Source: Actinobacteria bacterium HGW-Actinobacteria-7 (GTDB taxonomy: Bacteria > Actinomycetota > Coriobacteriia > Anaerosomatales > PHET01). Taken from it: a stretch of DNA of 64,000 nt. Of the stretch, positions 20,028 to 45,897 are shown piece after piece. The translations under genes were made by a program, and so were the position numbers. The stretch is from positions 87,289-151,288 of the forward strand of contig PHET01000004.1 of NCBI GenBank assembly GCA_002841275.1, written 5' to 3'. The notes below the pieces were generated by a model. That model saw only the letters and a list, made by a program, of their open reading frames with translations. It was not told the origin of the DNA and did no database searches. Numbering within the stretch: position 1 is the stretch's first letter; the number at the start of each line of letters is the position of its first letter.

Positions 20028-20130
20028 CCCCACCTGCCGCACGGTTGCCCCCACTATCGTCCGAGGTGTACGATTCGTCTGTTCGGGCCACGCTCGCGTA
20101 CCCGGATATTGACAGCCGAGGAAGTCAGCT

Positions 20131-20357
20131 CCGTCCGTTACGGTGCGGCTCCTGTTCGAACACAGGCCACTGCCCGGAAATGTCGAGAGACGCCAATGGG
20201 TAGAACAGCCCTCGCCGGCTTAAGGCGAAGGCTAAGGTGGCTGGGCTCGTGGACCGGCGCGCAAGCGACCGGCACCACAGGTGGGGCACGACCCCATCGC
20301 GTCGACGACACCACGCGTCGCGCGCCCTACGTCGGACAGTGCCAAATCCACAGACGA
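20131..20357 (+). promoter_or_regulatory. M-box (ykoK) Mg2+ riboswitch aptamer
   Basis: GUUACGGUGCGGCUCCUGU...CACUGCCCGGAAAUGUCGAGAGACGCCAAUGGGUAGAACAG...UUAAGGCG...GCUAAGGUGGCUGG...ACAGUGCCAAAUCCACAGACG aligns block by block with the B. subtilis mgtE M-box as I remember it (GUUAGGUGAGGCUCCUGU...CUGCCCAAAAAUGUCCAAAGACGCUAAUGGGUCAACAG...ACAGUGCUAAAGCUCUACG). Confidence 0.9.
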
Positions 20358-20442
20358 GGGATCGAGCGGTGACAGACCGGCACGTGCTCCCGCCTGAGGT
20401 GGGTCCGCGTGCTGTCATGTGCGCGACGCACACCACCGTACG

Positions 20443-22564: not shown

Positions 22565-23820
22565 ACTCGGCACCCGCTCCGCGCAGGCGCGCCCGGTTTC
22601 TCGCACTGTTGGCAGTGATGGGGCCCGGGATCGTGGCCGCATCCGCCGGCAACGACGCCGGCGGCATCTCGACGTACTCGGTCGATGGCGCGAGCTATGG
22701 CTACGCCACGCTGTGGATGATATTCGTGATGACCTTCTCGCTCGTGGTGGTCCAAGAGATGGCCGCTCGAATGGGAGCGGTCACCGGCAAGGGCTTCGCG
22801 GCGCTGATTCGCGAGAAGTTCGGCGTACGACCCACCCTGTTCGCGATGCTCGCCCTGCTGGTGAGCAACGCGGCCACCAGCATTGCCGAGTTCGCCGGTG
22901 TCGCCGCGGGCATGGAGCTGTTCGGGGTCAGCAAGTACATCTCGGTCCCTATTGCCGCAATCGTCGTGTGGCTGCTGGTTGTCCGCGGCAGCTACCGCAA
23001 CGTCGAGAAGGTCTTCCTGGCCCTCTCGAGCATCTTCCTCGCCTACGTCGTCGCGGCGTTTCTCGCCAAACCCGATTGGGGCGCAGTGCTCACGGCGACG
23101 GTCGTGCCTCAGTTCGTGCCCAAGGTCGACTTCGTGCTGCTGGTCGTCGCGACCGTTGGTACCACGATCGCGCCGTGGATGCAGTTCTTCGTGCAGAGCA
23201 ACATCGTCGACAAGGGCGTGAACGTCAAAGACCTGGGCTTGCAGCGCGTCGATGTCATCGCTGGCGCAATCGCGGCCAACATCGTTGCGTGGTTCATCAT
23301 CGTGACCACCGGAACGGTCTTGTTCCCCAAGGGCATCGAGATCACGGGGGCCGAGCAGGCGGCGCTCGCACTGGCACCCGTCGCGGGCCAGTACGCCACG
23401 GTGCTGTTCGGGGTAGGGCTCATCTCGGCGTCCCTGCTGGCCGCCTGTGTCCTCCCACTCACGGCCGCCTACGCGATCACGGAGGCGTTCGGCTGGGAAC
23501 GGGGCATCGACCGCACATGGACGGAAGCCCCGGCATTCAACGCCATCTACACGTTCGTCATCTTCTTCGGAGCGGCGTGGGTACTCATCCCCAACGCGCC
23601 ATTGATCACCATCATGGTCCTCTCGCAGGCCATCAATGGCATACTCTTGCCATTCCTTCTCATCTACATGATCAAGATCATCAACGACCGCCGTATCATG
23701 GGTAAGCATGTCAACGGCAGGACCACCAACGTGCTTGCATGGACCACCACCATCGTTGTGATCGGTCTGAGCATCGCCCTATTGGGCGGGTCGGCTCTCC
23801 AGGGACTGGGGCTCTTGTGA
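22561..23820 (+). CDS. NRAMP-related magnesium transporter (NRMT subgroup of SLC11)
   Basis: GTGA overlap with the upstream gene. The TM1 motif is NDAGG instead of DPGN, and the TM6 motif is GTTIAPW instead of GA(T/I)(V/I)MPH. I remember this substitution pattern from the Eggerthella lenta NRMT. Confidence 0.85.
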   Translation: MNSAPAPRRRARFLALLAVMGPGIVAASAGNDAGGISTYSVDGASYGYATLWMIFVMTFSLVVVQEMAARMGAVTGKGFAALIREKFGVRPTLFAMLALLVSNAATSIAEFAGVAAGMELFGVSKYISVPIAAIVVWLLVVRGSYRNVEKVFLALSSIFLAYVVAAFLAKPDWGAVLTATVVPQFVPKVDFVLLVVATVGTTIAPWMQFFVQSNIVDKGVNVKDLGLQRVDVIAGAIAANIVAWFIIVTTGTVLFPKGIEITGAEQAALALAPVAGQYATVLFGVGLISASLLAACVLPLTAAYAITEAFGWERGIDRTWTEAPAFNAIYTFVIFFGAAWVLIPNAPLITIMVLSQAINGILLPFLLIYMIKIINDRRIMGKHVNGRTTNVLAWTTTIVVIGLSIALLGGSALQGLGLL

Positions 23821-24414: not shown

Positions 24415-25305
24415 CTACTTGCTGGCGAGGTACTTCATGATTCCGTTCGCCATACCCTCTGCGAGCTTCTTTTGGTAGGCCGCAGTATCGAGTTTGCGGT
24501 CCTCGGCGGAGTTGCTCATGAACCCCATCTCGACAAGGACCGTGGGCACCTTCGCCCAGTTGAACCCGCTCAGGTCGCTACGCTTCACAAGCCCGCGGTC
24601 GGCAGCCCCACTGCTCTTGACCACCGCATCGTGGATGTAGCGCCCCGCCGTCTTGCTCTCGTCAACGATCGGTGCGGTCCAGCTGTTCTTGGCGGGGATC
24701 AACGTCGAAAGCCCGTGCAGACTGTGGTTGTTGTTGCCATCGCAGTGCAAGCGGATGAAAACGTCCGCGTGCGCATCGTTGGCGATCTGCGCCCGCTTCG
24801 AGTTCGCGATGTTCACATCCTGTTTGCTGCGGACCATGACCACCTTCACCCCCCGGCTCTCGAGTTCGTCCCGCAGCCGCTTGGCGACCTCGAGGTTCAC
24901 GCTGCTTTCCGAGTTGTGCGTCGCAACGCCGCTGGTCCCCCCGGATACCTTGGGCTTCATCTCGGTAGCGCCCGGCCCTATGGGCTCGAGGCTCGAATCC
25001 GCCTTCTGCTGATGGCCCGCGTCAATGACCACGGTGGCCGAGAACGTCTTGGTCGGCTTCGGCTTTGCAGGTTGCGGCTTGGGTGCTGCCAGCTTGGGGG
25101 CAACGGGTTCCGGTTCGACTGTGGCCGGCACGGTGGCTACGACCGTAGCGCTTGCCACAACCGAGGCGCTGGGCTCGGGCTGCATCGTCGCGGTGGCTGA
25201 TTCGGTCTGCGGGCTCGGCACAGGGCCCACCATCGCGTTGATCACCCCACTGGCCACGGCCAGTACCGCTGCCAACCCGAGGACGATTCCGCCCAGGGTC
25301 AACAT
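24415..25305 (-). CDS. N-acetylmuramoyl-L-alanine amidase (Amidase_3)
   Basis: TM anchor and Pro/Ala-rich linker, then VVIDAGHQ, ADVFIRLHCDG and LVEMGFMSN. The start is uncertain (25305 or 25413). Confidence 0.8.
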   Translation of the reverse strand: MLTLGGIVLGLAAVLAVASGVINAMVGPVPSPQTESATATMQPEPSASVVASATVVATVPATVEPEPVAPKLAAPKPQPAKPKPTKTFSATVVIDAGHQQKADSSLEPIGPGATEMKPKVSGGTSGVATHNSESSVNLEVAKRLRDELESRGVKVVMVRSKQDVNIANSKRAQIANDAHADVFIRLHCDGNNNHSLHGLSTLIPAKNSWTAPIVDESKTAGRYIHDAVVKSSGAADRGLVKRSDLSGFNWAKVPTVLVEMGFMSNSAEDRKLDTAAYQKKLAEGMANGIMKYLASK

Positions 25306-25387
25306 GATCCGCTTCGTCGAGACCTGATCTCGCTCGTTGTACAACGTGCGCCTGCTTTCACAACAACGGTGAACCGAGCGGCGTCCC

Positions 25388-26533
25388 CTACTTGGGCGCC
25401 CGCTTGACTGCATAGAGTTCTTCGACCGTCACGAACAAGTAGCCCTTCGCCCTGAGCTTCTTGATGATGGTCGGCAGCGCCTTCACCGTCTGACTTCGGT
25501 CTCCCCCACCGTCGTGCATAAGGATGATCGAGCCGGGCTTCGCGTGCCTGACCACGTTGGAGGCGATCTTCTGGGCCCCAGGCTTCGTCCAGTCCTTGCT
25601 GTCGACATCCCAGATGACAACGTGGACCTTCTCGACGCGAGCTACCTTCCACGACTTGGCATTCATGCCTCCGTACGGAGGTCGCAACCAACGCGTGCTG
25701 ACTCCGGTGTACTTCTTTATCGCGGCAGCACCGCCGCGAATCTGGTGCTTGATCTCCTTGGGCTTCTCTTTGGTCAGGAGCCGGTGGCCCAGGGTGTGAT
25801 TCGCCACCTGATGCCCCTCGGCTACCACGCGGCGCGCGACGGCTGGCGCCTTCTTGACGCGCACTCCAAGCATGAAGAATGTGCCGGGCACCTGCTCACG
25901 CTTGAGAACATCGAGAATCGCCTCGGTGGACTTGGGCCACGGGCCGTCATCGAAGGTGAGGGCCACGACTTTCGTTCCCGCCCTGGGGTGGAACCGCTGG
26001 ACCACGGCGTCGTTGGGCTGTATGAGCACGGTACTCGAGACCTCGACACCGGACAGCGCTCCACGCGTCACCAGACGAACGCCTGGTACACCTGGAACCC
26101 GCTCTTCGATCAGAGAGCCCTTGCCCAGATAGCTGATTGCGAAGGGAACCGAGACCTCTGTCGTCTCGAGTGACTCACGGAGGTCGGCACCCGGTCGGCT
26201 GACGATGACATCCCCGCTATGCAGCAGTTCGTCGGGGGTCGCAGGATGGCCGTTGCGCAGCACTTGGATCGGTTGACCACCACGAACCCTGGTCACCGTG
26301 CCATCGACAGCGAGCATATCTCCTGCTGAGGATCTGTACGTCCCGGGGCCCAGGGTGCGCACCGTGGCTCCGTTGGATACTTCACGAGAGACCCCGTCAA
26401 CGGTGACTGTCGAAGGGCGGGACGCGGCCCAGCCCGCGGTGAGGGCGAGTACGAGCAGAATCACGATGGCGCCGGCCACGGTTCCCCAAACCACGCGGGA
26501 CCGCGGCGGACGGTCTATGACGTCATTTGACAC
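25388..26533 (-). CDS. polysaccharide deacetylase (NodB/PgdA family), membrane-anchored
   Basis: Contains ALTFDDGP, HQVANHTLGH and LMHDGGG. I prefer the GTG start at 26533, which follows GGAGGA, to the TTG at 26551. Confidence 0.8.
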   Translation of the reverse strand: MSNDVIDRPPRSRVVWGTVAGAIVILLVLALTAGWAASRPSTVTVDGVSREVSNGATVRTLGPGTYRSSAGDMLAVDGTVTRVRGGQPIQVLRNGHPATPDELLHSGDVIVSRPGADLRESLETTEVSVPFAISYLGKGSLIEERVPGVPGVRLVTRGALSGVEVSSTVLIQPNDAVVQRFHPRAGTKVVALTFDDGPWPKSTEAILDVLKREQVPGTFFMLGVRVKKAPAVARRVVAEGHQVANHTLGHRLLTKEKPKEIKHQIRGGAAAIKKYTGVSTRWLRPPYGGMNAKSWKVARVEKVHVVIWDVDSKDWTKPGAQKIASNVVRHAKPGSIILMHDGGGDRSQTVKALPTIIKKLRAKGYLFVTVEELYAVKRAPK

Positions 26534-26572
26534 AGAGTGGTCCTCCCGCAAGCACGCCGGTCAATCTGAGCT

Positions 26573-27061
26573 TCAGGCGTGCGAGATACATGCCACCCGC
26601 CCACCGGCTACCCGCGCAAGGTCCGCATAGCGCATGCGCACCATCGACGAAGGCGTGCCTGCGGCAGGGTAGACCGTTTCGAAGCGTGTGAGTGAATCAT
26701 CAATGAGCACAGTGAGTTCCTCGGGCAAGTCGAACGGCGACACCCCGCCGATCGCATATCCGGTGACCGCACGCACGGTATCGGCATCCGCCATCTTCGC
26801 CGCAGTCGCGCCCACCTCGCCGCAGATCGCGTCGAAATCTCCTCGACGATCTCCCGCGACCAGCGCGAGCACCGGGGTACCATCGGCCACCACTACAAGG
26901 GACTTCACGATCTGGCCGAGTTCACAGCCCATCGCCTCGGCGGCCGCGGCCGCCGTCTTGGTCGACTGCTCGAACTCGGTGAGGCCCTCGGCCAATCCGT
27001 GCGCTTCTAGAAACGCTCTCACTCGTTCGCGCGAGCCGGGCTTCTTCTGGGGCTGAGTCAT
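26573..27061 (-). CDS. YbaK/EbsC-type aminoacyl-tRNA deacylase
   Basis: Contains KSLVVVADG and GYAIGGVSPF. ATGA overlap with the upstream GNAT gene. Confidence 0.8.
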   Translation of the reverse strand: MTQPQKKPGSRERVRAFLEAHGLAEGLTEFEQSTKTAAAAAEAMGCELGQIVKSLVVVADGTPVLALVAGDRRGDFDAICGEVGATAAKMADADTVRAVTGYAIGGVSPFDLPEELTVLIDDSLTRFETVYPAAGTPSSMVRMRYADLARVAGGRVACISHA

Positions 27062-27699
27062 CGACGCCCGCCTGTCCATGACGCAGGGGCGCGGCTAGGC
27101 ACCCGCGTAGGGAATCTCAGTGAGTTCAGAACCGCTTCGAGGTTCTCGGACCAGCTCACGAGCGATCGCAGATCCAGCCTCATGAGCGGGAACTGCGCAT
27201 CCGGCCGCGATACCGTGAACCCGTTGCGCAGAAGAAAGTCGATTCCCAACATCGGGGAGTCCTCAATCACTGCAGGGCGCTGAGCTGCGGCGAACGCTTC
27301 GACCTTGCGCTCTCCTCGGCCAAGAAGGTCCTTGAGTGCGGCACGAAGCAGAACGCTGCCTAGGCCGTGATGGCGAGCATCAGCGGTAATGTGCAGACAG
27401 GCGATCATTGGCACCGTGGGATCCTCGGGCGCGGACGGGAACGTGGAGGACTGCGGAAAGTACCGGGATGGCGCGTATTTGATGAACCCGAGGATCTCGT
27501 CGTCCTCGCGGGCCACGCAACCGCACTCGCCCCACTCGTCAGTCACCTGCCGGTACCATGCCTCCTGGAGTTCCGGGTCACATACCGAACCGCACATGCG
27601 CCTGCGCTCACCTGCGCTTTCCCAGAACACACAGGACCCGCAGCTCATAGGGAGCTGGTCGAAGTCCGCGAGTGCGAGGGGTCTGAGCTTACGCGCCAT
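27058..27699 (-). CDS. GNAT acetyltransferase with Cys-rich N-terminus
   Basis: CGSCVFWE...CGSVC N-terminal region, then the GNAT core ARHHGLGSVLLRAAL. Confidence 0.7.
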   Translation of the reverse strand: MARKLRPLALADFDQLPMSCGSCVFWESAGERRRMCGSVCDPELQEAWYRQVTDEWGECGCVAREDDEILGFIKYAPSRYFPQSSTFPSAPEDPTVPMIACLHITADARHHGLGSVLLRAALKDLLGRGERKVEAFAAAQRPAVIEDSPMLGIDFLLRNGFTVSRPDAQFPLMRLDLRSLVSWSENLEAVLNSLRFPTRVPSRAPASWTGGRR

Positions 27700-27759: not shown

Positions 27760-28467
27760 TCACTTGTCTTCAGGCTCACCCATCATGTCGACGACCTCGT
27801 CCTTCATCGTCTTGAGCCAGCCCAGTGCCTTCTTGCCGGTCTTGCTTTCCGAGGCGACCTTCGCGGCAGCTTTCACATAGAGAGTGGCCGTCTTCACAGC
27901 CTTGCCAGCGACGTCCTTGGCGACTGCCGTACCGCGCCCAGCCGCCGCCGCCGCACCACCGCTCGTGTCGGCGGCCTGTGCCTCGTCGGCGACCACAACC
28001 ACCTCGCCGTCGAAACCGTCCACCATGGTCACAGGGATGTCTCGAACGCCCACCGCAACGTCAGCAGCCGCTCCGGAACTCAGTCCAAGCGCAGACAGCT
28101 CACCGGTGTCAGAGTCGAACAGACCGTCCCGCACGGTGCCCAGCGAGACCCCGCTCCGGGTTCTCACCTGCATACCCTGCCAGACGACCGTGGCGTCCCA
28201 GGAGGTCTTCAGCCGACTGGCTGCGGGCTTGTCCCAGCTCTCCCGGCCGCCGGTGACCCTCAACTCACCATCGACGATGTCCACGCTGTCGAGTGCAAGA
28301 TATCGATCACGCCGATCGAGGATCATCAGCAAGCGAGGCCTCGCGACGACGAACCCCACCACGGTCTTCGACTGCGGCGCGAACAACACGTCGGACACAC
28401 GTCCGACGCGCTTCCCATTGGCCGAGAACACCTCATGCCGATAGACCTTGCGAAGTGAGAATGTCAT
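27760..28467 (-). CDS. PRC-barrel domain protein (two copies) with Lys/Ala-rich tail
   Basis: VFSANGKRVGRVSDVLF... and a second segment VRTRSGVSLGTVRDGLFD...; this call is by resemblance only. Confidence 0.6.
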   Translation of the reverse strand: MTFSLRKVYRHEVFSANGKRVGRVSDVLFAPQSKTVVGFVVARPRLLMILDRRDRYLALDSVDIVDGELRVTGGRESWDKPAASRLKTSWDATVVWQGMQVRTRSGVSLGTVRDGLFDSDTGELSALGLSSGAAADVAVGVRDIPVTMVDGFDGEVVVVADEAQAADTSGGAAAAAGRGTAVAKDVAGKAVKTATLYVKAAAKVASESKTGKKALGWLKTMKDEVVDMMGEPEDK

Positions 28468-28550
28468 GCCCCGCCTTCCGGCGACAGGAACACCAAGGCC
28501 GGCCCCGCATGCGCCCAGGACCGGCCTCGATAGTAACAGCGTTTACGCGG

Positions 28551-29156
28551 CTAGACCCCCGCGACGCCCGGATCGTCGGTGACGACCGGATTGAACGTAC
28601 CCGAACCTTCGTCACCCTTGGCCTTCTTGGCCACGAAATCGAGCGTGTCCTGGGCCTTCGCGCCAGCAGAATCGAATCCACTCTTGGTCACATCGGCTGC
28701 TCTGTCAACGACGTCCTTAGCGGCGGGAACAACGTCGCCCAGCTTGTCCTTGGCGGTCTCCGCGGTCTTGGCAACCTGGTCCTTGAGCCTATCACGGGCC
28801 TCATCGATCTTCGCGCGCATCTGATCGGATGACTCGGCGACCTTCTCCTTGCCAGTCGAGTAGGCCTCAGTCGCCTTGTCCTTGCTGGTGGAGTACAGTT
28901 CTGTGGCCTTCTCCTTGCCGGTCGAATACAGCTCGGTGGCCTTCTCCTTGCCGGTCTCGATGGCCTCAGAGGCCTTCTCTACGCCGGTGTGGTAGATCTC
29001 GACGCCCTCGCCCCAATACTCCTCGGCCTTCTCGGTCAGGATCTCGCGAGTCTCCTTGCCAGAACGCGGCGCGAACAACAGGCCCAGCACGGCGCCTACA
29101 AGGCCGCCCAGCAGGAATGCCCCGAACACTGACCCCCCACGGCGATATTCATACAT
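28551..29156 (-). CDS. YtxH domain general-stress-type protein with 11-aa repeats
   Basis: GGLVGAVLGLLFAPRSGKETRE is the YtxH motif. It is followed by repeats TGKEKATELYS / TSKDKATEAYS. Confidence 0.8.
   Translation of the reverse strand: MYEYRRGGSVFGAFLLGGLVGAVLGLLFAPRSGKETREILTEKAEEYWGEGVEIYHTGVEKASEAIETGKEKATELYSTGKEKATELYSTSKDKATEAYSTGKEKVAESSDQMRAKIDEARDRLKDQVAKTAETAKDKLGDVVPAAKDVVDRAADVTKSGFDSAGAKAQDTLDFVAKKAKGDEGSGTFNPVVTDDPGVAGV
28822..28986 (-). repeat. 33-bp in-frame tandem repeat (about 4-5 units) inside the ytxH-like gene
   Basis: Units at 28855, 28888, 28921 and 28954, for example gtggagtacagttctgtggccttctccttgccg / gtcgaatacagctcggtggccttctccttgccg. Confidence 0.7.
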
Positions 29157-29248
29157 AACCCAAGCACCTCCGTCATCGATGCGAATACCCTTGGTAGAGT
29201 CGCTAGGGGACCCAACGAACTCGTCAGGCCCTAACTACCTATACCCCA

Positions 29249-30196
29249 TTAGCTCCGGGCAAGTGCAGCCGCGATGACCTTTGATACCACGTCTTGGAAA
29301 GTCATGCCAGCCGCCTTGGCGGCCATTGGCAGAAGGGAAGTCTCGGTCATGCCCGGCGAGGTGTTGCACTCGAGGACCTGCGGGACGCCCGCACTGTCGA
29401 TCACCATGTCGACGCGGCTCACATCTCGGCATCCGATCAGCTGATGGACGCGCGCTGCAATGGACGCAGCGCGAGCGGCAACGTCGGCGCTGACCCTGGC
29501 CGGGACAAAGAAATCCGCTCCGTCTGCCGCCATGCGTGCGTCGAAGTCATAGAGCGCGCCCGTGGGGACGATCTCAACGGCGGGTAGCACCTCGACCTCG
29601 TCTCCGGTCCCCAGGACGGTGATTGCCAGTTCGGTCCCATCAATCCAACGCTCGACGATCGCAGCGGTGTCATACGACAGCGCGTCGAGAAGCGCCTCGG
29701 CCAGCTGTCCCGCGCTCTGCACCTTGCGCATCCCCAGCGCAGAGCCCTGCCGAGAAGGCTTCACGGCCACCGGGAACCCACCAACCGCCTCTCCCATCAG
29801 GTCGATCGCGGTGGCGGCACCCATCTCCTTGAACGCATCGGCGGTCAGTGTGACCCACGCTGGAGTGGACACGCCGTTCTCGGCGAGAAGATGCTTGGTG
29901 ACCGACTTGTCCCACGAGAGTGCGCTCGCGACGACTCCGGGACCGGTGTAGGAGATGCGGAGGAACTCGAGCAGCTCCTGGATGGTGCCGTCCTCCCCAT
30001 ACTTGCCGTGAAGGGCGATGTACGCCGCGTTGGGGCGCTCGCTTCGCAGGGTGCCCACGAGGTCAGCGGTCACGTCGAGCGCGAGCACGTAGTAGCCGGC
30101 TGCCTCAAGCGCAGCGCAGACTTGTCGGCCACTGGACAGTGATACTTCGCGCTCGAGCGAGCGCCCGCCCATCAGAACCGCGATCTTCTCTCTCAC
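29249..30196 (-). CDS. D-Ala-D-Ala-ligase-family ATP-grasp enzyme with variant omega-loop residues
   Basis: Trimmed to the GTG at 30196 (GTGA overlap with the aminotransferase stop). Contains KIAVLMGGRSLEREVS, KPSRQGSALGM and NTSPGMT. Where E. coli DdlB has FYDYEAKY, this protein has LYDFDARM. Confidence 0.85.
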   Translation of the reverse strand: MREKIAVLMGGRSLEREVSLSSGRQVCAALEAAGYYVLALDVTADLVGTLRSERPNAAYIALHGKYGEDGTIQELLEFLRISYTGPGVVASALSWDKSVTKHLLAENGVSTPAWVTLTADAFKEMGAATAIDLMGEAVGGFPVAVKPSRQGSALGMRKVQSAGQLAEALLDALSYDTAAIVERWIDGTELAITVLGTGDEVEVLPAVEIVPTGALYDFDARMAADGADFFVPARVSADVAARAASIAARVHQLIGCRDVSRVDMVIDSAGVPQVLECNTSPGMTETSLLPMAAKAAGMTFQDVVSKVIAAALARS

Positions 30197-31470
30197 GCCG
30201 CTCCCTCCTCGACTTCGATAGCACCCGCGGCAATGAATGCGCGGTAGAGTTCCAGTCGGTCTTCGAGCACCTCGGCCAGCCGCCGGATCCCCTCGGCGAT
30301 CTTCTCTGGCTCGGCGTAGCAGAACGCCAGCCGCATGCAGTTGCGCCCACGACCGTCGGGGTAGAACCCGTCGCCCGGCACGAATGTGACGCCGTGCTCG
30401 ACCGCCTCGGCGAGCATGGAAGCGCAGTCGACATAGGGCGGCATCTCGACCCACACGAAGAAGCCACCATCCGGCCTGGTCCATCGCGCTTCCGGTGGGA
30501 AGTGCTCGTCGAGCGCCGCGAGCATCGCGTCACGGCGTTCCGAGTACGTCGCCGTCAGCCCCTGAAGCACGCGCCGCCACCGCGTGCCCAGGAAGTAGCG
30601 CTCGGCGGTGACCTGCGCGAAGTTGCTACCGCACAGGTCAGCGCCCTGCTTTACCAGAAGTATCTTGGCCAGTATCGGCCGAGGGGCTGTGACCCAGCCC
30701 AGTCGCAGGCCCGGCGCAAAGATCTTCGAGAACGTGCCCAGGTAGATGACCTCGTCGTCGAGTGAGCGCAGCGGCTTCATGTGTCCGCCCTCAAAACGCA
30801 GACGTCCGTACGGATCGTCCTCGACCACGGGGATGTCGTACTCGCGCGCCAGCTCGAGCAGCCTGCGCCGGCGCTCCGGTGACATCGTCACGCCAGCCGG
30901 GTTCTGGAAGTTCGGAATCGTGTAGATGAACTTCGCACCACGCGGCCCCAGACGCTTCAGCTCCTCCTCGAGCAGGTCCGTGCGCATCCCGTCGTCGTCC
31001 ATGGGGATGCAGCGGATATCGGGCTGGTATGCCGAGAAGGCCTGAAGGGCTCCCACATACGTGGGCCCCTCGGTGATGATGACATCGCCGGGATCGATGA
31101 ATGCCTTGGCGATCAGATCGAGCGCCTGCTGCGCGCCCGCGGTCACCACGACCTCGCCAGGCGAGAGGCGCACGCCAATCTCGGCCATCAGCTCGGCAAT
31201 GATGGTGCGAATCTGCTCGCGCCCTTCGCTGGAACCATACTGCAGCGCAGCGGCTCCCTCGTGCATGATCGCCTCGGACGCCGCTTGGGCGACCGCCGCA
31301 ATGGGGACCCTCGAAACCTCCGGCATGCCTCCGGACAATGAGATCATGTCGGGCATCGACGCTGCCGCGAACAGGTCTCGGACGGCGCTCGAGCGTACGC
31401 TGGCGATCCGCCTCGCGTACCGATCCCCCCACCTATCGAACACCACACGTGCGGTACCCATACCCGTCAC
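30193..31470 (-). CDS. PLP-dependent aminotransferase, class I/II (LysN/ARO8-like)
   Basis: Contains NFQNPAG and the PLP lysine in TFSKIFAPGLRLGW. The start is GTG 31470 or ATG 31461, the latter after AGGTGA. Confidence 0.85.
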   Translation of the reverse strand: MTGMGTARVVFDRWGDRYARRIASVRSSAVRDLFAAASMPDMISLSGGMPEVSRVPIAAVAQAASEAIMHEGAAALQYGSSEGREQIRTIIAELMAEIGVRLSPGEVVVTAGAQQALDLIAKAFIDPGDVIITEGPTYVGALQAFSAYQPDIRCIPMDDDGMRTDLLEEELKRLGPRGAKFIYTIPNFQNPAGVTMSPERRRRLLELAREYDIPVVEDDPYGRLRFEGGHMKPLRSLDDEVIYLGTFSKIFAPGLRLGWVTAPRPILAKILLVKQGADLCGSNFAQVTAERYFLGTRWRRVLQGLTATYSERRDAMLAALDEHFPPEARWTRPDGGFFVWVEMPPYVDCASMLAEAVEHGVTFVPGDGFYPDGRGRNCMRLAFCYAEPEKIAEGIRRLAEVLEDRLELYRAFIAAGAIEVEEGAA

Positions 31471-31497
31471 CTACCCCTGGAGACGCGAAACGTCCCC

Positions 31498-31539
31498 GAG
31501 AAACAGAACAGCCCCCTCCGCCTGATAGGGCGAGGGGGC
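31498..31539 (-). terminator. intrinsic terminator of the T-box leader
   Basis: The minus strand reads GCCCCCUCGCC-cuaucag-GGCGGAGGGGGC followed by UGUUCUGUUUCU. Confidence 0.8.
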
Positions 31540-31750
31540 ATCGCGGTACCACCTATCTTCGCTCGATCGCGCCGATCCTCTCGGCGATCTCAAGCCTCAT
31601 TCCCGGGATACCGGTCCGGGACCGACCCGCTTCCGTACGGCGTCAGCCGCCCTGGCGGGGGACATCGGAGGGGTGGCCGGGCATCGCGCCCTCTTCCCTC
31701 ACGTCCGTGGTGTCATATCCAGTCCTGCCAAGAAGAACCTCGCAGGTGTT
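31498..31750 (-). promoter_or_regulatory. T-box tRNA-sensing leader
   Basis: The minus strand 31554-31542 reads AGGTGGTACCGCG (T-box core). The antiterminator is GAUAGG/[UGGUACC]/GCG..CGC/CCUAUC, with a competing terminator. Upstream, GUGAGGGAAGAGGGC resembles the K-turn and specifier-loop 5' strand. Confidence 0.85.
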
Positions 31751-31755
31751 GGGGC

Positions 31756-31785
31756 ACTCTATCACCGTGGAGCGCACAGGGTCAA
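31756..31785 (-). promoter_or_regulatory. candidate sigma-70-type promoter for the T-box operon
   Basis: The minus strand has TTGACC (31785-31780), an 18-nt spacer and TAGAGT (31761-31756). Confidence 0.35.
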
Positions 31786-31877
31786 CGCTCGGCCGCCGGG
31801 CGTCAACCTCGCGTCACCATGCCTGATCATCGGGCACGGTGTATATTCCGCGCTCTGCCCACCACGATGGTGGCGAT

Positions 31878-34805
31878 CTATCGGCCGAAACGCTCCCCAA
31901 TCGCTTCAACCACCTGCGTGCTCACCATACGCTCGACGTCTGCCACGGGCAGCGCTTCGAGGAACCGTGCGCCATACCCCTTGCGAACCACCCGCGCATC
32001 GGCGATCACGAGGCAGCCCGTGTCGGTGCTGCTCCGAATCAGCCGGCCAGCGGCCTGCTTCAGTTCAAGCACCGCTTCGGGAAGAGAATAGCGATTCCAC
32101 GCGGCACGTCCTTCTCGGCGTTCTCGCTCGCACGACAACGGATCCGTGGGGCGGCCGAACGGAAGCTTGGGCACGACCACGCAGCGCAGCGTGTCGCCCT
32201 TCGCGTCGAAACCCTCCCAGAAACTCTTGAGGGCGAAGAGCGAGAGGTGCTCATCAGCCAGAAACTCGTCGCGCAGGCGCTTGGCCGACGTTCCCCTACG
32301 CTGACAGATCAGATCCAAACCCTTCGTCCGCAATCGTGGCTCCAGCAGCGCATGGAGGCGCTCCATGTCGCGGCGATTGGTGAAGAGCGTCAGCACGCTC
32401 CCACCCATAGCCACATGCACACCCTCAAGCAGCGCCTCGAGCCGGGACAGATAGCCCGCTTCTCGCGGTTCCGGCAGATCCGTTGGCACGAACACCGCCA
32501 TCTGACGTTCGAACTCGTAGCTCGATTCGAGGCGCAGCGCGCGCCACTTCGCGCGGTCCAGACGATCGAGTCCCACGCTGCGTGCGAAGTGCTCGAACGA
32601 CTCTCCTGCCGCGATGGTGGCTGAGGTGAAGACCACGCTGTGCGCCCGCGGATAGAGATCCTCTGCAAGCACTTCCCCGATATCCAACCGCTCGGCGACG
32701 AGCTTCTCGGCATTGATGCCTGCCCGACGATCGAGCGTTGCCGAGTAGACCAGCGCGTCATTCTCCCCGTCGACCACCGCCACAAGGCCCAGATGCTGAT
32801 CTGCAAGTCGGGTGAGCAGCCCGACAAGGTCAGCGCGCGGGTCGGAAGCCTCGGGACCGTACTCTTCGAGTCTAGTCACGAGTTCCCGCCCCTCAGCAAG
32901 CAGCTCCGCGAGTCGTCGCGCGAGCGAGCGCCCCGTCGATGCGACCGTGCCCCAAGGCCCGCTCTCCCGCACCTGATCGGTCAGCCAGAGCTCGGCGGCG
33001 TCGTAGTCGCTGTCCCCCGCAAGCGGCGCGAGGTCCTTCACGAACTCGAAAAGCGATTGGGCCAGCGTCGCGCAGCGCTGAGTGCCCTCCTCCATCTGCG
33101 TGATGAGCCCTAGGAGCGCCCCCGCGTGCTGGTCGCCCGCGAGCTTCTTGCGCACAGACTCGAGCAGGCCTCCACGCTTCGTATGTAGTGCGCCGAGGAC
33201 CACCGACAGCTCCAGTTGGCTCGCGCCCAGCGTGAGCTGCTTGCGTGCTTCACTCTCCGCCGAGTGCGCTTCGTCGATGATCCAGTGCCGCACCGGTGGC
33301 AGTATCCCACCCTGCGCCACGACGTCCCTGAAGAGCAGCGCGTGGTTGGTAACCACGATGTTCGAGCTAGCGGCGCGACGGCGAACCCCATGCAGGTAGC
33401 ACAGATTGGGGTAGTAGCGGCAGCGCTTGTGCGTACAGTCGGCCTGGCTCGCCTGGACCGAGGCGCGCAGCTCGCGCCGCCAATGCAGGTTGACCGCGTC
33501 GAGATCTCCCCAAGCGCTCTGCCCCACCCACGCGATCAACATCGCAATCGCCGAGATGAGCTCGGGATCAGACCCGTCGTGCAGCTCTCCTGCCGCACGT
33601 TCGAGCTTGCGCAGGCACGGATAGTGGTCGTAGCCCTTCAGTGCGACGTAGCGGAGCTCTCCTCCCAGCGCCTCGTTCAGACGCGGCAGCTCGTGGTAGA
33701 CCAGCTGGTCCATGAGCGCATTGGTCTTGGTCGCGACGCCTACCCCCACCCGATTCTCAAGTGAGAAGAGGGCCGCGGGGACCAGGTAGGCCATGGACTT
33801 GCCCACGCCCGTTCCTGCCTCGATGGCCACATGCGTGGATGTCTCGAAGGAGGCGAGCACCGCCCGCGCCATCTCGACCTGCTCGGAACGCTTCTCGAAT
33901 CCGGGGTACATGCGCCCCGCGAGGCCTCCGGTCGCGAACTCCGCTGCCACCTCCTCGGACGCCGGACACGTGCACTCGATATCATCGGCATCGCGCAGCG
34001 TCTCGCCCTTGTCGGCTGCGACCCTGCGTCTGCGCACCTCCTTCAGGTCATAGGCAGCACGCGGATGAGCCGCGGCGATCCGGGCGAGCCACGGCCGTTC
34101 AGGCCACGGAGCGCTGGGTGCAAGGCCTGCGATGCGGGAGATCAGCCCGGGCTCGAGTTCGGCCACTCCGGTCAGCGCGACGCGCCAGATGCGCGTGAGC
34201 GCCTCGACGTCGTGCGCGGCCCGATGAGCGGAGTCGGTGAGTTCCGGTGCGAACGCCGCAGCCAGATCGGTGAGTCTGTGGCTGCGCACGCGCGGTAGCC
34301 CGATTCGGGTGAAGACCAGGGAGTCGAGCCATGTCGTCGCGACGACTCCCCTCCCCGCGACAGCCTCGAGAAACCCTCTGTCGAACGCACCGTTGTGCGC
34401 AACGACCTCTCGGCCTCCCGCGAACTCAGCGAGTCTGGCGACTGCGGCCTCTGCGCAAGGAGCGCCCTGCACCGTCTGGTCATCGATACCCGTGAGTTTC
34501 GTGATCTCGGTGGGGACAGGCACCATGGGGTCCACCAGTGAGCTGAACCGCTCAAGCACCTCTGGACCTCGCATGATGGCGGCGGCCACCTCGATGATCC
34601 GATCGCGGGAAGCGTCATAGCCGGTCGTCTCGATATCGAGGACGCAGACCTCTTCCTCGAACCCGAAGGTCGCTTCTCGGGCGCGCTCGGCAAACGTCGC
34701 ATAGGCGTCGACGATATCCGGATCGGTGCCCGGAAGAATCAGCGATGAGAGGGCATCTGAGGTCACGGCCGCCAGCGTATCACGCGGCTGCGACAGTTCC
34801 GGCAC
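31878..34805 (-). CDS. dinG: DinG-family helicase fused to an N-terminal DEDDh exonuclease
   Basis: VLDIETTGYD...HNGAFD...HRAAHD is the exonuclease part. AIEAGTGVGKS and IIDEAHS are the helicase part. The start codon is uncertain: the GTG at 34805 abuts the upstream terminator. Confidence 0.85.
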   Translation of the reverse strand: MPELSQPRDTLAAVTSDALSSLILPGTDPDIVDAYATFAERAREATFGFEEEVCVLDIETTGYDASRDRIIEVAAAIMRGPEVLERFSSLVDPMVPVPTEITKLTGIDDQTVQGAPCAEAAVARLAEFAGGREVVAHNGAFDRGFLEAVAGRGVVATTWLDSLVFTRIGLPRVRSHRLTDLAAAFAPELTDSAHRAAHDVEALTRIWRVALTGVAELEPGLISRIAGLAPSAPWPERPWLARIAAAHPRAAYDLKEVRRRRVAADKGETLRDADDIECTCPASEEVAAEFATGGLAGRMYPGFEKRSEQVEMARAVLASFETSTHVAIEAGTGVGKSMAYLVPAALFSLENRVGVGVATKTNALMDQLVYHELPRLNEALGGELRYVALKGYDHYPCLRKLERAAGELHDGSDPELISAIAMLIAWVGQSAWGDLDAVNLHWRRELRASVQASQADCTHKRCRYYPNLCYLHGVRRRAASSNIVVTNHALLFRDVVAQGGILPPVRHWIIDEAHSAESEARKQLTLGASQLELSVVLGALHTKRGGLLESVRKKLAGDQHAGALLGLITQMEEGTQRCATLAQSLFEFVKDLAPLAGDSDYDAAELWLTDQVRESGPWGTVASTGRSLARRLAELLAEGRELVTRLEEYGPEASDPRADLVGLLTRLADQHLGLVAVVDGENDALVYSATLDRRAGINAEKLVAERLDIGEVLAEDLYPRAHSVVFTSATIAAGESFEHFARSVGLDRLDRAKWRALRLESSYEFERQMAVFVPTDLPEPREAGYLSRLEALLEGVHVAMGGSVLTLFTNRRDMERLHALLEPRLRTKGLDLICQRRGTSAKRLRDEFLADEHLSLFALKSFWEGFDAKGDTLRCVVVPKLPFGRPTDPLSCERERREGRAAWNRYSLPEAVLELKQAAGRLIRSSTDTGCLVIADARVVRKGYGARFLEALPVADVERMVSTQVVEAIGERFGR

Positions 34806-35572: not shown

Positions 35573-36244
35573 ATGACACGCCAACGGAGCCTATTCGATG
35601 TTGTGGGTCCCGTGATGATCGGGCCCAGTTCCAGCCACACGGCTGGAGCAGTACGCTTGGGAGCCCTCGCCCGCGCGGTCTTCGGATCGCAGCCAAAGCG
35701 AGCCCAGATAGCGCTGCACGGGTCGTTTGCCACCACCGGGCTGGGTCATGGAACCGACTTGGCTTTGGTCGCGGGACTCCTCGGCATGACCCCCGATGAT
35801 GTGCGGATTCCTCATGCCCTCGAAGAAGCCCTGAGTGCTGGACTATCGGTCGAGTTCACCAGCGTCGAGCTTGGAGAGGTGCACCCCAATACCGCCGAGT
35901 TCGCCCTCTTCGACGCGGCTGGAAACATGATGTGCATCCGAGGTTCGTCACTCGGGGGTGGCGAGGTTGTGGTGACCGCAATCGACGGTTTCGAGGTGAT
36001 TGCCAACGGCGAGCTGCCGCTTCTGGTGGTCGATCACACCGACCGCCCCGGCGTGATCGCAGCGGTCACGGGCATACTCGCCGACAGCGGGACCAACATC
36101 GCCGAGATGCGCGTCTCCCGGGAACGGCGTGGTGCGCGAGCCCTCATGCTTATCGAGACAGACGTCGAGGTGGATGATGTGTGCTCGGCAAGCATCGCCA
36201 AACAGCCCGGCGTTTCAAGCGTCCGCCACGTTCCCGCGGTCTGA
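35573..36244 (+). CDS. sdaAB: L-serine ammonia-lyase (Fe-S type) beta subunit
   Basis: Contains SLFDVVGPVMIGPSSSHTAGAVRLG and a C-terminal ACT-like domain. Confidence 0.9.
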   Translation: MTRQRSLFDVVGPVMIGPSSSHTAGAVRLGALARAVFGSQPKRAQIALHGSFATTGLGHGTDLALVAGLLGMTPDDVRIPHALEEALSAGLSVEFTSVELGEVHPNTAEFALFDAAGNMMCIRGSSLGGGEVVVTAIDGFEVIANGELPLLVVDHTDRPGVIAAVTGILADSGTNIAEMRVSRERRGARALMLIETDVEVDDVCSASIAKQPGVSSVRHVPAV

Positions 36245-43371: not shown

Positions 43372-44271
43372 ATGAGAGCGCCCCGATTCCGCGAGAAAGA
43401 GACCCCCTTGGCCTACGCTGCCTTTTCTGAACTCCTTGCCGCCGCCGAACTGTCCGGCTCGCTTTCCGCTTCCGCAATCGATCGCGAGACCGCAGAGACC
43501 GCTGTCGCCCCTGCCCAGCTACGCGTACGCATGGCCGAGACGCTCACGGTCATGCGTGAGGCCGTCGCCACCGGGCTTCTCGGCGAGTCACGCTCGCGCT
43601 CGGGGTTGACGGGCGGTGACGCCAAACGGGTTGCCGAGTCCACCTCCGGGCCCGTTTCCGGGGTCTTCCAGACAGCCATCGCCGCTGCGCTCGCCACCGT
43701 TGAGGTCAACGCCGCGATGGGTCGCATCGTCGCGGCACCGACCGGCGGCGCTTCAGGTGTTCTGCCGGCGGTCATCCTCACTGTCGGTGCAGACCGCGGA
43801 TCGAGCGAGGACGAACTGGTTGACGCGCTGTTCACCGCTGCGGCCATCGGAGGCATCATCGCCGCCCGTGCCACGCTTTCAGGTGCGGCGGGCGGGTGCC
43901 AGGCCGAGGTGGGCTCGGCTGCGGCAATGGCGGCGGCTGCTGCAACCCAGCTCTGTGGGGGAACTCCAGAGCAGATAGGGCACGCTGCGTCACTTGCCCT
44001 ACAGGGCCTGATGGGTCTGGTCTGCGACCCCGTGGCAGGGCTGGTCGAGGTCCCGTGCGTCCACCGAAACGGCACCGGATGCGCACTTTCTTTAGCGGCT
44101 GCACAGATGGCCTTAGCAGGGATTATCTTTCCTGTACCGCTTGACGAGGTCATAGACGCACAGTCTTTGGTAGGGCGTTCGCTATCTCCATCGTTACGAG
44201 AGACCGCGCAAGGAGGTCTGGCAATCACGCCCACCGGACGTGATCTTGCCGAAAAGGCCCGGAGAAAGTGA
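43372..44271 (+). CDS. sdaAA: L-serine ammonia-lyase (Fe-S type) alpha subunit
   Basis: Contains PTGGASGVLPAVIL, CQAEVGSAAAMAA and CDPVAGLVEVPCVHRN. Confidence 0.9.
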   Translation: MRAPRFREKETPLAYAAFSELLAAAELSGSLSASAIDRETAETAVAPAQLRVRMAETLTVMREAVATGLLGESRSRSGLTGGDAKRVAESTSGPVSGVFQTAIAAALATVEVNAAMGRIVAAPTGGASGVLPAVILTVGADRGSSEDELVDALFTAAAIGGIIAARATLSGAAGGCQAEVGSAAAMAAAAATQLCGGTPEQIGHAASLALQGLMGLVCDPVAGLVEVPCVHRNGTGCALSLAAAQMALAGIIFPVPLDEVIDAQSLVGRSLSPSLRETAQGGLAITPTGRDLAEKARRK

Positions 44272-44275
44272 TCTG

Positions 44276-44956
44276 ATGAGTTTGACCGAGCACCCAAGTT
44301 CTGAGACGACCAGGGCCGCCGAGGACCTCGCGTTGTGCGCCCACGATCTGCGGGGGACGCTCACCGTCATCAGCGGATACGCGAACACGCTTCGCCGCCA
44401 CGGAGACCTCTCTGAGTCCCAGCGGGAACAGGCGCTCTCGGGAATCGAAGCTGCCGTTGCACGTGCTGACGGGATTATCGAAGACACTCTGGACGGGCGC
44501 GTGCGCGCCGGCTCAGGCTCGGGCGCAGTAAGCCTCGACGCCCTGATCCGACGTTCCGTCGCAGACGCTCGGGCGGCGACCGGCCGTGAAGTCAAGGAAC
44601 ACATCACCGCAACCCCCGTGGTCACTGGCGACGAACTCGCTCTCGCGCGCGTGCTCGACAACCTGCTGTCAAATGCAGCCAAGTACGCGCCCGAGGGAAA
44701 CATCGACGTGACTCTGTCTGTCGAGAATCCGGTCGCAATCATCGAGGTCGCGGACCGCGGCCCCGGCATCCCGCGTGCGGACCGGAAGCGAGTGCTTGAG
44801 CCCTTCATGCGACTGGAGCGCGACCAGAAGGCGCCGGGCACGGGACTTGGCCTGACGGTGGTCAAGAGCGTGGTTTCGCGGTTCGGCGGCTATGTCCAGA
44901 TATCTGACCGCAGGGGCGGCGGGGCGGCGATTCGGCTCTACCTGCCGCTCATCTAG
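44276..44956 (+). CDS. soluble histidine kinase (HisKA + HATPase_c only)
   Basis: Trimmed to the ATG at 44276. Contains H-box CAHDLRGTLTVISGY, N-box NLLSNAAKY, DRGPGIP and GTGLGL. Confidence 0.8.
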   Translation: MSLTEHPSSETTRAAEDLALCAHDLRGTLTVISGYANTLRRHGDLSESQREQALSGIEAAVARADGIIEDTLDGRVRAGSGSGAVSLDALIRRSVADARAATGREVKEHITATPVVTGDELALARVLDNLLSNAAKYAPEGNIDVTLSVENPVAIIEVADRGPGIPRADRKRVLEPFMRLERDQKAPGTGLGLTVVKSVVSRFGGYVQISDRRGGGAAIRLYLPLI

Positions 44957-45897
44957 CGACGCGGCTCCATCGCAAGTCCCACGAGTCGCGCGCACAGATC
45001 CGGGAACTCGATGCCTGCGGCGCGCGCAGCGTCCGGCAACAACGAAGTACTGGTCATCCCGGGAATGGTGTTGGTCTCCAGGACGTAGATGTCTTCGTCT
45101 GAAGTCACGATCAGGTCGGTCCGCGACATCCCCCTGCAACCCAGCACATCATGAGCGATCACCGAGAGTCGCTCGCACTCGCGTCTGGCTGCCTCGCTCA
45201 CCCTCGCGGGAATGATGTGCCGCGACATGCCCGGGGTGTATTTGCTGTCGTAGTCGTAGAACTCGTGCTCGGGAACGATTTCGAGCGTCGGCAGGGCGAT
45301 GGGGTGCTCGTTGCCCAACACGCCCACGGTAATCTCGGTTCCCGCAACGAAGCGTTCGACTAGAACGCTGCGGTCGTAATTGAACGCCAGACCGATGGCA
45401 GCGGGAAGTTCCGCATACTCGTGCACGATGGTCACGCCAATCGCGGATCCCTCGTTGGCTGGTTTGACTACGGTCTTGGGCCCCAGCTTGTCCACGATTC
45501 GGTCGAATTCGACCTCGTCGCCCCGCTTGACGATCACGTGCTCAGGCGTGGGTATCCCCGCCGCGACGAACAGCTGCTTGCTCATCACCTTGTCCATCGC
45601 CAGCGCGCTCGCAAGAACCCCGCTGCCGACGTAGGGCAGTTCGAGTAGTTCGCACAGCCCTTGGACCGTTCCATCTTCACCGAAACGCCCATGCAGACAG
45701 ATGAAGACCACGTTGGCCTGGGCACGAGCGAGCTGTATCACGAACTCGTCGTCGCCGCTGTCGATCTCGACTACGTCGAATCCGCTGTGCCGCAGCGCCG
45801 CCGAGACCTGTGCACCGGTGTGGAGTGAGACTTCGCGCTCGGCAGACCGGCCGCCCATCAAGACTGCGACCCGGATCTCCTCGGGGTGGATGGTCAT
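44953..45897 (-). CDS. ddl: D-alanine--D-alanine ligase (canonical)
   Basis: Trimmed to the ATG at 45897. Contains RVAVLMGGRSAEREVS, KPANEGSAIGV, FYDYDSKY (Lys-Tyr retained) and NTIPGMT. Confidence 0.9.
   Translation of the reverse strand: MTIHPEEIRVAVLMGGRSAEREVSLHTGAQVSAALRHSGFDVVEIDSGDDEFVIQLARAQANVVFICLHGRFGEDGTVQGLCELLELPYVGSGVLASALAMDKVMSKQLFVAAGIPTPEHVIVKRGDEVEFDRIVDKLGPKTVVKPANEGSAIGVTIVHEYAELPAAIGLAFNYDRSVLVERFVAGTEITVGVLGNEHPIALPTLEIVPEHEFYDYDSKYTPGMSRHIIPARVSEAARRECERLSVIAHDVLGCRGMSRTDLIVTSDEDIYVLETNTIPGMTSTSLLPDAARAAGIEFPDLCARLVGLAMEPRR

Follow-up and report, generated by a model that had tools for sequence, protein, structure and literature searches.

The window analysed here is a stretch of 64,000 nucleotides (nt) from Actinobacteria bacterium HGW-Actinobacteria-7 (contig PHET01000004.1, positions 87,289 to 151,288, forward strand). 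It carries, as an earlier reading made from the letters without database searches (the sequence-only reading) had proposed, two genes of the D-alanine--D-alanine ligase (Ddl) family, and both lie on the minus strand; one product, Ddl1, keeps the motif FYDYDSKY, and the other, Ddl2, has LYDFDARM at the same place. Our subject is the second gene, the aminotransferase (AT) gene that precedes it and the leader in front of both. Comparison with related loci shows, at the level of predicted elements, a sigma-70-type promoter followed by a T-box of ~250 nt, of alanine type and with a terminator/antiterminator switch, and then by two tightly coupled genes. The features concerned are the following:

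31756..31785 (-), sigma-70-type promoter (TTGACC, 18 nt spacer, TAGAGT, with a TG extension), the only promoter-like match in 28400-32000
31499..31755 (-), predicted T-box leader of the transcription-termination type, from the alignment and covariation of 56 orthologous leaders
31660..31706 (-), Stem I (GGACGU / GAGGG / internal loop / GGGC hairpin), for which hand model and minimum-free-energy fold coincide
31675..31677 (-), putative specifier codon GCC (Ala) with a conserved purine, A, after it, from the leader alignment
31601..31659 (-), Stem II (internal loop CAGG/GGAA) and IIA/B pseudoknot containing an F-box-like CCG(G/U)UA, from covariation
31524..31560 (-), T-box sequence GAAGAUAGGUGGUACCGCGA and antiterminator (helix A1, 7-nt UGGUACC bulge, helix A2), from motif match, covariation and energy
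31499..31539 (-), intrinsic terminator hairpin GCCCCCUCGCC...GGCGGAGGGGGC, then a U-rich tract, from folding energy and conservation
30193..31461 (-), class I/II pyridoxal phosphate (PLP) aminotransferase, 422 amino acids (aa), from Pfam Aminotran_1_2 and PDB matches
30193..30196 (-), GTGA, in which the AT stop codon is overlapped by the Ddl2 start codon
29249..30196 (-), Ddl2, DdlB-type D-alanine--D-alanine ligase paralog, 315 aa, from family models, PDB alignment and AlphaFold
29531..29554 (-), Ddl2 omega-loop motif LYDFDARM, in which Arg221 corresponds to Lys215 and Met222 to Tyr216 of DdlB
44953..45897 (-), Ddl1, the canonical paralog with Lys215-Tyr216 (EFYDYDSKY), 314 aa, from family models

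Both paralogs score above the curated cutoffs of two NCBIfam Ddl models, with Ddl2 at 330 bits on PRK01372 (cutoff 243) and 267 bits on TIGR01205 (cutoff 245.65), and Ddl1 at 377 bits on PRK01372. Ddl2 possesses both family domains (Dala_Dala_lig_C, PF07478, 4e-52; Dala_Dala_lig_N, PF01820, 2e-20), its best PDB matches are the DdlB enzymes of Escherichia coli and Yersinia pestis at ~40% identity, and in a phmmer search of that database residues 1-303 of E. coli DdlB pair with residues 1-309 of Ddl2 (E about 1e-67). An AlphaFold model (predicted local distance difference test, pLDDT, 84.7; predicted template modelling score, pTM, 0.84), of which the omega loop is the least confident part, is matched by Foldseek to 4zqi, 1iow and 2dln (Y. 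pestis / E. coli DdlB) with TM-scores of 0.84-0.87. Residues E15, H63, K144, S150, E180, R255, D257, E270, N272, G276, S281 and L282 (DdlB numbering) are present in Ddl2 and in 80/80 members of a set of species-level orthologs (61-88% identity) drawn from a genome collection, all of them Coriobacteriia and some labelled Anaerosomatales. The gene contains no frameshifts or premature stops. Ddl2 and Ddl1 are 41% identical, which indicates that the two copies probably separated long ago, and their top 120 orthologs are conserved to a similar degree (74-88% identity for Ddl2, 70-86% for Ddl1); at the omega-loop pair, every one of the 120 homologs closest to Ddl1 has Lys-Tyr. Orthologs of each paralog were also found on contigs of 2,515,883, 301,658 and 181,275 base pairs in three other assemblies and, because the reported contigs are equal in size, the two most likely share contigs there. 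These comparisons make Ddl2 a genuine second, divergent paralog rather than a decaying copy, and we predict, with slightly more confidence than doubt, that it works as a second D-alanine--D-alanine ligase isozyme.

The literature describes Lys215 as important for catalysis, and the Glu15-Ser150-Tyr216 triad is regarded as typical of strict D-Ala-D-Ala ligases. Ddl2 has neither the Lys215-Tyr216 pair nor, consequently, the complete triad, having Arg-Met instead. The omega loop is ungapped in the phmmer alignment (ptgalydfdarmaadgadff in Ddl2 over psgtfydyeakFlsdetqyf in E. coli DdlB, that is, LYDFDARM over FYDYEAK(Y/F)), so that the replacement of Lys215 by Arg221 and of Tyr216 by Met222 stands as the sequence-only reading had aligned it; the DdlB reference used is consistent with the PDB alignment. 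A register shift that would hide a conserved Lys-Tyr pair was considered and excluded, given the absence of gaps in the loop and its equal length in all 80 orthologs. A literature search for Met at the position of Tyr216 gave nothing relevant.

Across the 80 orthologs, the 215-216 pair is Met-Tyr in 58, Arg-Met in 9, Arg-Tyr in 7, and Arg-Thr, Arg-Val and Ala-Tyr in 2 each. Thus Lys215 is kept in none (Met 58, Arg 20, Ala 2) and Tyr216 in 67, its loss being limited, within this set, to the Arg215 subclade to which the window belongs. The 120 closest database clusters of Ddl2 (74-100% identity), which represent that subclade only, always have Arg at 215, and at 216 have Met (55), Tyr (38), Val (14), Thr (11), Ile (1) or Leu (1); parsimony requires at least 12 changes at this position among 122 close homologs. 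A first parsimony run returned Met as the ancestral state at 216, a result that we reject as sampling bias, since only homologs of at least 74% identity were included and the 80-species set has a Met215-Tyr216 majority. In 160 aligned Ddl sequences the pair is Lys-Tyr in 102, Arg-Tyr in 28, His-Tyr in 5 and Met-Tyr in 2, so that lacking Lys at position 215 is nothing unusual for the family. The operon is unchanged whatever residue occupies 216, and as the 67 orthologs that keep Tyr216 have the same operon and T-box, this residue does not track its context. On this evidence the hallmark of the paralog is the loss of Lys215, with the loss of Tyr216 a local event, and we regard the Arg-Met pair as probable local variation in an otherwise canonical enzyme family, and not as clear evidence of new chemistry. 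More broadly, the Ddl2 lineage appears to be specific to Coriobacteriia and to have given up Lys215 throughout, and Tyr216 as well in the window's subclade. The family offers a natural experiment on the Ddl omega loop, with Lys215 replaced by Met, Arg or Ala in 80 species and one subclade also without Tyr216; work on antibiotic targets and vancomycin resistance assigns mechanistic or diagnostic importance to both residues.

The partner gene encodes a protein matching Pfam Aminotran_1_2 (E = 9.5e-35), with its PLP lysine in TFSK (K246), and no NCBIfam model reached its cutoff on it. PDB matches include PH0207 (1e-111), the multiple-substrate AT of Thermococcus profundus (7e-106), the alanine:glyoxylate AT of T. 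litoralis (1e-83) and Thermus LysN (3e-81), which agrees with the LysN/ARO8-like PLP aminotransferase named in the sequence-only reading. When aligned to LysN (2egy), the equivalents of R23, K238 and R386 are kept, that is, the PLP lysine and both carboxylate-binding arginines. These matches place the AT in the subgroup of KAT-II, multiple-substrate ATs, alanine:glyoxylate ATs and LysN, and the retention of the three residues indicates what is probably an ordinary L-amino-acid transaminase linked to Glu/2-oxoglutarate. Its conserved start is the ATG at 31461, and not the GTG at 31470 from which it had earlier been read.

Coupling between the two genes is tight, as had been suggested from the GTGA start/stop overlap, which is real (30193-30196) and is preceded by a Shine-Dalgarno sequence, GAGGAGGG, 6 nt upstream of the Ddl2 start; this strong site, inside the 3' end of the AT gene, is conserved. 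Of 78 loci, 33 have the 4-nt overlap and 9 an overlap of 1 nt, and in 66 the genes are separated by no more than 13 nt. The AT gene lies immediately upstream of ddl2 wherever the contig reaches far enough, at 71-94% identity. At one locus (L041:2819-5695), near a contig end, the Ddl2 ortholog is found twice in inverted orientation, together with partial copies of the AT, which is probably an assembly artefact or an inverted duplication.

Both genes had been placed behind a T-box, and covariation supports the leader at 31499-31755 (-). The T-box motif GGTGGTACCGCG (also written GGUGGUACCGCG) is exact at 31542-31553, and UAGGUGGUACCGCG agrees at 12/14 positions with the consensus AGGGUGGNACCGCG quoted in PMC11297988. 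The motif is found in 70 of the 73 loci with enough upstream sequence, whatever the residue at 216, and the promoter pattern TTGAC-N17-19-TA...T is kept across orthologous leaders. A structure model for 56 such leaders pairs 83% of cells, as against 36-50% with the partners slid, and shows compensatory changes in 35 pairs, values reached by 0/500 shuffles. The covariation is located in Stem I (base and distal helices 3 and 5), Stem II, the IIA/B pseudoknot, the base of Stem III and the antiterminator. The base of Stem II (helix 6) is 98.6% paired with compensatory changes, the pseudoknot (helix 9) and helix 11 also covary, and helix A1 covaries with UA in 31 and CG in 25 leaders at one pair and AU in 53 and UA in 3 at another. 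The CCG(G/U)UA F-box is conserved, and Stem II, the pseudoknot and Stem III are all present. Antiterminator and terminator, with energies of -9.6 and -23.2 kcal/mol, share the terminator's 5' arm and are mutually exclusive; the terminator is conserved in all leaders, and was missed by a simple terminator scan because its U tract is interrupted. Stem I lacks the AG bulge and the distal-loop platform that contacts the tRNA elbow, as a 4-bp hairpin ends it directly above the specifier loop, and its K-turn is incomplete, with GUGA present and the 3' GA not conserved. In Mycobacterium tuberculosis, Stem I of the ileS T-box is reportedly likewise short and without a distal platform. On balance we take the T-box upstream of the AT and Ddl2 genes to be real, as judged from comparative sequence evidence. 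One-mismatch matches to the motif elsewhere in the window are within chance expectation, and a second motif in L010 (at 2417) lies inside a coding sequence and is a chance match.

The proposed specifier, GCC (G79, C80, C81), is invariant in 56/56 leaders and is situated in the internal loop of Stem I, on its 3' side; the base that follows is A in 66 loci and G in 2, and the base before it varies between A and G. The series GCC-A-CCCC-UCCGA is placed as is UUC-A-CUCC-CGA in the pheS T-box of L085, a locus from a sister-clade genome. A UGGU bulge fits discriminator base A73. From position and conservation, specifier and bulge together fit tRNA-Ala, and hence a putative alanine-sensing T-box. The only alternative would be tRNA-Pro, with the codon shifted one base on (CCA or CCG); a pyrimidine would then follow the codon, which speaks against it. 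With GCC specifying alanine, the module would sense a canonical amino acid. The two-enzyme module under tRNA-charging control envisaged by the sequence-only reading is thus upheld by the T-box and the tight coupling, whereas its suggestion of a specific, possibly non-canonical, amino acid is not.

Rfam did not report this leader: RF00230 was not matched in the window at the gathering threshold, nor in 801-nt and 331-nt slices at E up to 10, and the only riboswitch reported in the window was an M-box. No T-box match was returned at 11 orthologous loci and 4 sister loci either. A canonical-looking pheS T-box (L085:6040-6340, with K-turn, AGAGAG bulge, UUC-A, GGUGGUACCGCG and terminator), which lies directly after a Ddl2-like gene, went equally unreported at the gathering threshold, and for that reason we give the Rfam negatives little weight. 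Annotation of riboswitches in Coriobacteriia may consequently be incomplete, given that the Rfam search used overlooked these T-boxes and may miss those of the class systematically.

A crude neighbour-joining tree with Kimura distances gives the Ddl2 clade a sister of eight clusters (at 50% identity), one of them labelled Coriobacteriales, all without Tyr216 and with Arg-Phe, Arg-Met, Arg-Leu or Arg-Gln instead. In 3/4 of the sister-clade loci looked up, an AT with 57-60% identity to that of the window lies immediately upstream of the Ddl gene. One sister-clade Ddl-like protein (P0123, L084:1419-2435), also preceded by an AT, has Phe at Tyr216 and Thr-Arg at Ser281-Leu282, which resembles the VanC-type D-Ala-D-Ser signature. 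Outside the Ddl2 clade, an Arg-Tyr Ddl from a genome of 73% G+C content (GC) overlaps by 4 nt an upstream AT that is 48% identical to the window's (L089:2619-4957), and the AT-ddl pairing is therefore broader than the Ddl2 of Coriobacteriia and predates both the T-box and the loss of Tyr216. The co-occurrence of the two genes across genomes, raised as a question in the sequence-only reading, accordingly extends from most of the 78 loci to the sister clade and to this outlying Ddl, spanning genomes of 42-73% GC with or without a T-box. In one ortholog leader (L090:3566-3711), promoter and 5' hairpin survive together with half of Stem I, the 5' one (GAAGGAAGAGGACAUCAUCC), and everything from Stem II through the terminator is gone; this looks like a T-box deleted in one lineage.

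Relatives carry a further gene at this place. In 53 of 81 loci (80 related loci and the window region), the gene just before the T-box promoter, on the same strand, encodes a small stand-alone protein of ~155 aa that matches PF18921, a cyanophycin synthase-like N-terminal domain, and that has the Cys-x(15-22)-HxxEH zinc-peptidase motif described in PMC9262961; the example at L064:3945-4427 scores 48.5 bits against a cutoff of 27. It also adjoins sister-clade Ddl genes (L081, L087, L090). The window lacks it, and both the window and its closest relative (L001) carry other genes at that place. No PF18921-Ddl fusion occurred among the long Ddl representatives checked.

Our preferred explanation, to which we assign a probability of roughly 55%, is an operon induced by alanine starvation, in which the AT makes L-Ala and the second Ddl isozyme sustains D-Ala-D-Ala synthesis. 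By default, the -23 kcal/mol terminator would halt transcription ahead of the AT gene. Uncharged tRNA-Ala would pair through its GGC anticodon with the GCC specifier and through its free ACCA end with the UGGU bulge, stabilising the antiterminator and permitting transcription of AT-ddl2. The AT would then convert pyruvate to L-alanine, and Ddl2 would add ligase capacity, so that synthesis of D-Ala-D-Ala and peptidoglycan precursors could continue at a low D-Ala pool. Since D-Ala binds weakly at the second site of Ddl, a scarcity of D-Ala cuts the flux through the enzyme sharply. Ddl1, with Lys-Tyr, would be the constitutive housekeeping enzyme, and Arg-Met a tolerated variant of a loop that seems loosely constrained in the Ddl2 lineage; by analogy with Y216F in DdlB, it may somewhat relax selectivity at the second site. 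The occurrence of alanine:glyoxylate AT among the AT homologs, and of peptidoglycan deacetylase and amidase genes downstream of ddl2, supports this explanation. Known targets of T-box control are tRNA synthetases, transporters and genes for amino-acid biosynthesis. Our literature searches found no report of a T-box governing a peptidoglycan-precursor ligase, and nothing relevant on a T-box combined with ddl or an aminotransferase. If the explanation is correct, an order of Coriobacteriia rich in uncultured members (Anaerosomatales / OPB41-like) couples cell-wall precursor supply directly to the charging of tRNA-Ala.

Several observations weigh against a starvation-induced alanine operon. Alanine as the AT substrate is read solely from the T-box codon, and the AT-Ddl pair remains where the T-box is absent (L081, L090), which suggests that the link between the genes is deeper than alanine regulation. 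A tblastn search with a Geobacillus Alr query found no alanine racemase gene in the window or in ~90 loci, covering ~13 kb per genome. Lys215, for all its reputed catalytic importance, is missing from all 80 orthologs. Loss of the Tyr216 hydroxyl would, as we read the DdlB mutant literature, be expected to worsen rather than improve affinity for the second D-Ala, and this weakens the rationale of a high-affinity isozyme. Lastly, as the whole sister clade is without Tyr216 and one member combines a VanC-like Phe216 with Arg282, altered specificity may exist in the wider family.

The main rival, in line with the sequence-only reading, is that Ddl2 joins D-Ala to a partner other than D-Ala, which the AT supplies or removes, much as VanH serves VanA and VanT serves VanC. 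Met replaces Tyr216 here, the eight sister-clade clusters dispense with Tyr216 altogether, Y212 is Phe and Lys215 lost throughout, and the pairing of AT and ligase persists over the whole GC range irrespective of the T-box; the zinc-peptidase-like gene that often adjoins in relatives is reminiscent of VanX. A passage of PMC7691350 that cites mutant work records that DdlB without the Tyr216 hydroxyl gains a weak ability to form the depsipeptide D-Ala-D-Lac. On the other hand, the Glu15-Ser150-Tyr216 triad is kept in 67/80 orthologs with an identical operon, Ser281 and Leu282 are retained, hence there is no VanC-type arginine, and VanA, VanC and VanG models score only 120-195 bits against cutoffs of 495-775. 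Moreover, the T-box codon is that of alanine, and a fold-type-I AT yields L-amino acids, which Ddl-type enzymes do not use, glycine being the exception. The comparative data thus argue against a dedicated new substrate for Ddl2, and we consider such a module unlikely, with some weight left to it by the sister clade without Tyr216, its one VanC-like member and the persistence of the pair without the T-box; the window's own Arg-Met enzyme may have an altered specificity. The step from Arg-Met to a non-canonical amino acid, taken in the sequence-only reading, does not survive the invariant GCC specifier, the 67 orthologs with Tyr216, the 28 Arg-Tyr pairs among 160 Ddl sequences, the low Van scores and retained Leu282, or the ordinary residues of the AT. 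A variant that keeps alanine as the signal, and that we hold to be improbable, is an alanine-sparing switch of the cell wall, whereby uncharged tRNA-Ala induces the AT and a Ddl with a loosened loop that would take something other than alanine for the stem peptide's disposable position five. Candidates for that position would be D-Ser, D-Lac or glycine, the last produced from glyoxylate by the AT, and in relatives the recycling of D-Ala-D-Ala would fall to the PF18921 mini zinc peptidase, which is homologous to the N domain of cyanophycin synthetase. Such a switch would allow peptidoglycan synthesis at half the D-Ala cost, and would amount to a starvation-driven, Van-like remodelling without any link to antibiotics.

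Other subfamilies of fold-type-I PLP enzymes have members that racemise or invert their substrates, and the AT might itself yield D-alanine, by stereo-inverting transamination or racemisation, so that the pair would turn pyruvate or L-Ala into D-Ala-D-Ala as a self-contained branch. The tight and ancient AT-Ddl coupling and the absence of a racemase gene from the window and ~90 loci would suit this idea, although that absence extends over only ~13 kb per genome. However, the nearest solved relatives of the AT are ordinary L-specific transaminases whose key residues it keeps, and we know of no racemase in its subgroup; a D-alanine branch is accordingly, in our estimation, quite improbable. We give least credence of all, as very improbable, to Ddl2 being a redundant or decaying spare copy with a drifting omega loop, for which adjacency to the AT and T-box would mean nothing. 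Variability at 215 and 216, including the at least 12 changes at the latter among 122 close homologs, and the low pLDDT of the omega loop are what such decay might produce, yet the frame is intact, the catalytic residues are invariant in 80/80 orthologs, conservation equals that of Ddl1, and the AT overlap and Shine-Dalgarno site are preserved in a pair retained over deep divergence.

Two D-Ala-D-Ala ligase paralogs per genome occur likewise in E. coli and Pseudomonas aeruginosa (DdlA/DdlB), and both of the window's paralogs are of the short DdlB type; the difference is that Ddl2 is without Lys215 and Tyr216, is translationally coupled to an AT and lies under a T-box. As in the DdlB Y216F mutant and in Leuconostoc LmDdl2, a D-Ala-D-Lac ligase with Phe at Tyr216, the hydroxyl closing the Glu15-Ser150-Tyr216 network is lost in Ddl2; however, Ddl2 has Met rather than Phe, most of its orthologs keep Tyr, and it retains Ser150 where LmDdl2 has Ala (PMC7691350). 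LmDdl2 (1ehi) is a distant match (E = 6e-31, 23% identity). The VanH-VanA-VanX and VanT-VanC systems likewise encode a ligase alongside an enzyme acting on a pyruvate-level or amino-acid substrate, and relatives of the window have a small metallopeptidase-like gene nearby. In contrast to the Van operons, the partner here is an aminotransferase instead of a dehydrogenase or racemase, control would be by T-box instead of VanRS, and the relatives' peptidase-like protein belongs to a different fold family. Ddl2 falls far short of the VanA/B/D type (D_ala_D_lac 157 bits, cutoff 550; VanA 135 bits, cutoff 775) and of the VanC/E/G type (VanG 195 bits, cutoff 495; D_ala_D_ser 160 bits, cutoff 520), with Ser281-Leu282 in 80/80 orthologs; the combination of Phe216 and Arg282 is confined to P0123.

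Regarding the leader, the alaS T-box of Firmicutes (e.g. Clostridium acetobutylicum, PMC4695836) is alanine-specific and acts by transcription antitermination, as proposed here, whereas in the window an AT and a cell-wall ligase stand downstream in place of a tRNA synthetase and Stem I is truncated. The M. tuberculosis ileS T-box (PMC11297988) has the same actinobacterial-type decoding module of Stem I, Stem II and IIA/B pseudoknot, although it acts on translation by sequestering the ribosome-binding site, in contrast to the classical terminator/antiterminator switch predicted here. The AT shares its class-I subgroup, PLP lysine and both arginines with Pyrococcus horikoshii PH0207 (a KAT-II homolog), the T. 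profundus and T. litoralis ATs and Thermus LysN, and differs from these in being uniquely coupled to a ddl gene and in falling below every NCBIfam equivalog cutoff.

Downstream of ddl2, Pfam matches identify the following neighbours:

28551-29156 (-), YtxH
27760-28467 (-), PRC-barrel
27058-27699 (-), GNAT acetyltransferase
26573-27079 (-), YbaK-like (YbaK/ProX-type) aminoacyl-tRNA editing domain
25388-26551 (-), polysaccharide deacetylase
24415-25413 (-), MurNAc-L-Ala amidase

A terminator scan found no terminator-like site after ddl2. The order YtxH, PRC-barrel, GNAT, YbaK-like and polysaccharide deacetylase is common to the window and L090, the amidase being present only in the window of the two, and L081 has a reduced set (an unannotated gene, PRC-barrel and polysaccharide deacetylase). 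The position of a YbaK-like trans-editing factor beside an operon that would sense tRNA-Ala is possibly a coincidence, and possibly not. Directly upstream of the T-box promoter lies a DinG-like helicase gene (31878-34805, -; 975 aa) with an N-terminal RNase T-type exonuclease domain, at the place that the small PF18921 gene takes in most relatives. No tRNA genes were found in the window. The chains of an L-serine dehydratase are encoded ~7 kb apart rather than adjacently, the beta chain, with an ACT domain, at 35573-36244 (+) and the alpha chain at 43372-44271 (+). The M-box (Mg2+) riboswitch reported by Rfam (113 bits, 20127-20368, +) precedes genes for a PRC-MgtE_N-CBS protein (20696-22564) and an Nramp transporter (22561-23820), and MgtE and Nramp genes also flank the AT-Ddl cluster in the low-GC relative L081.

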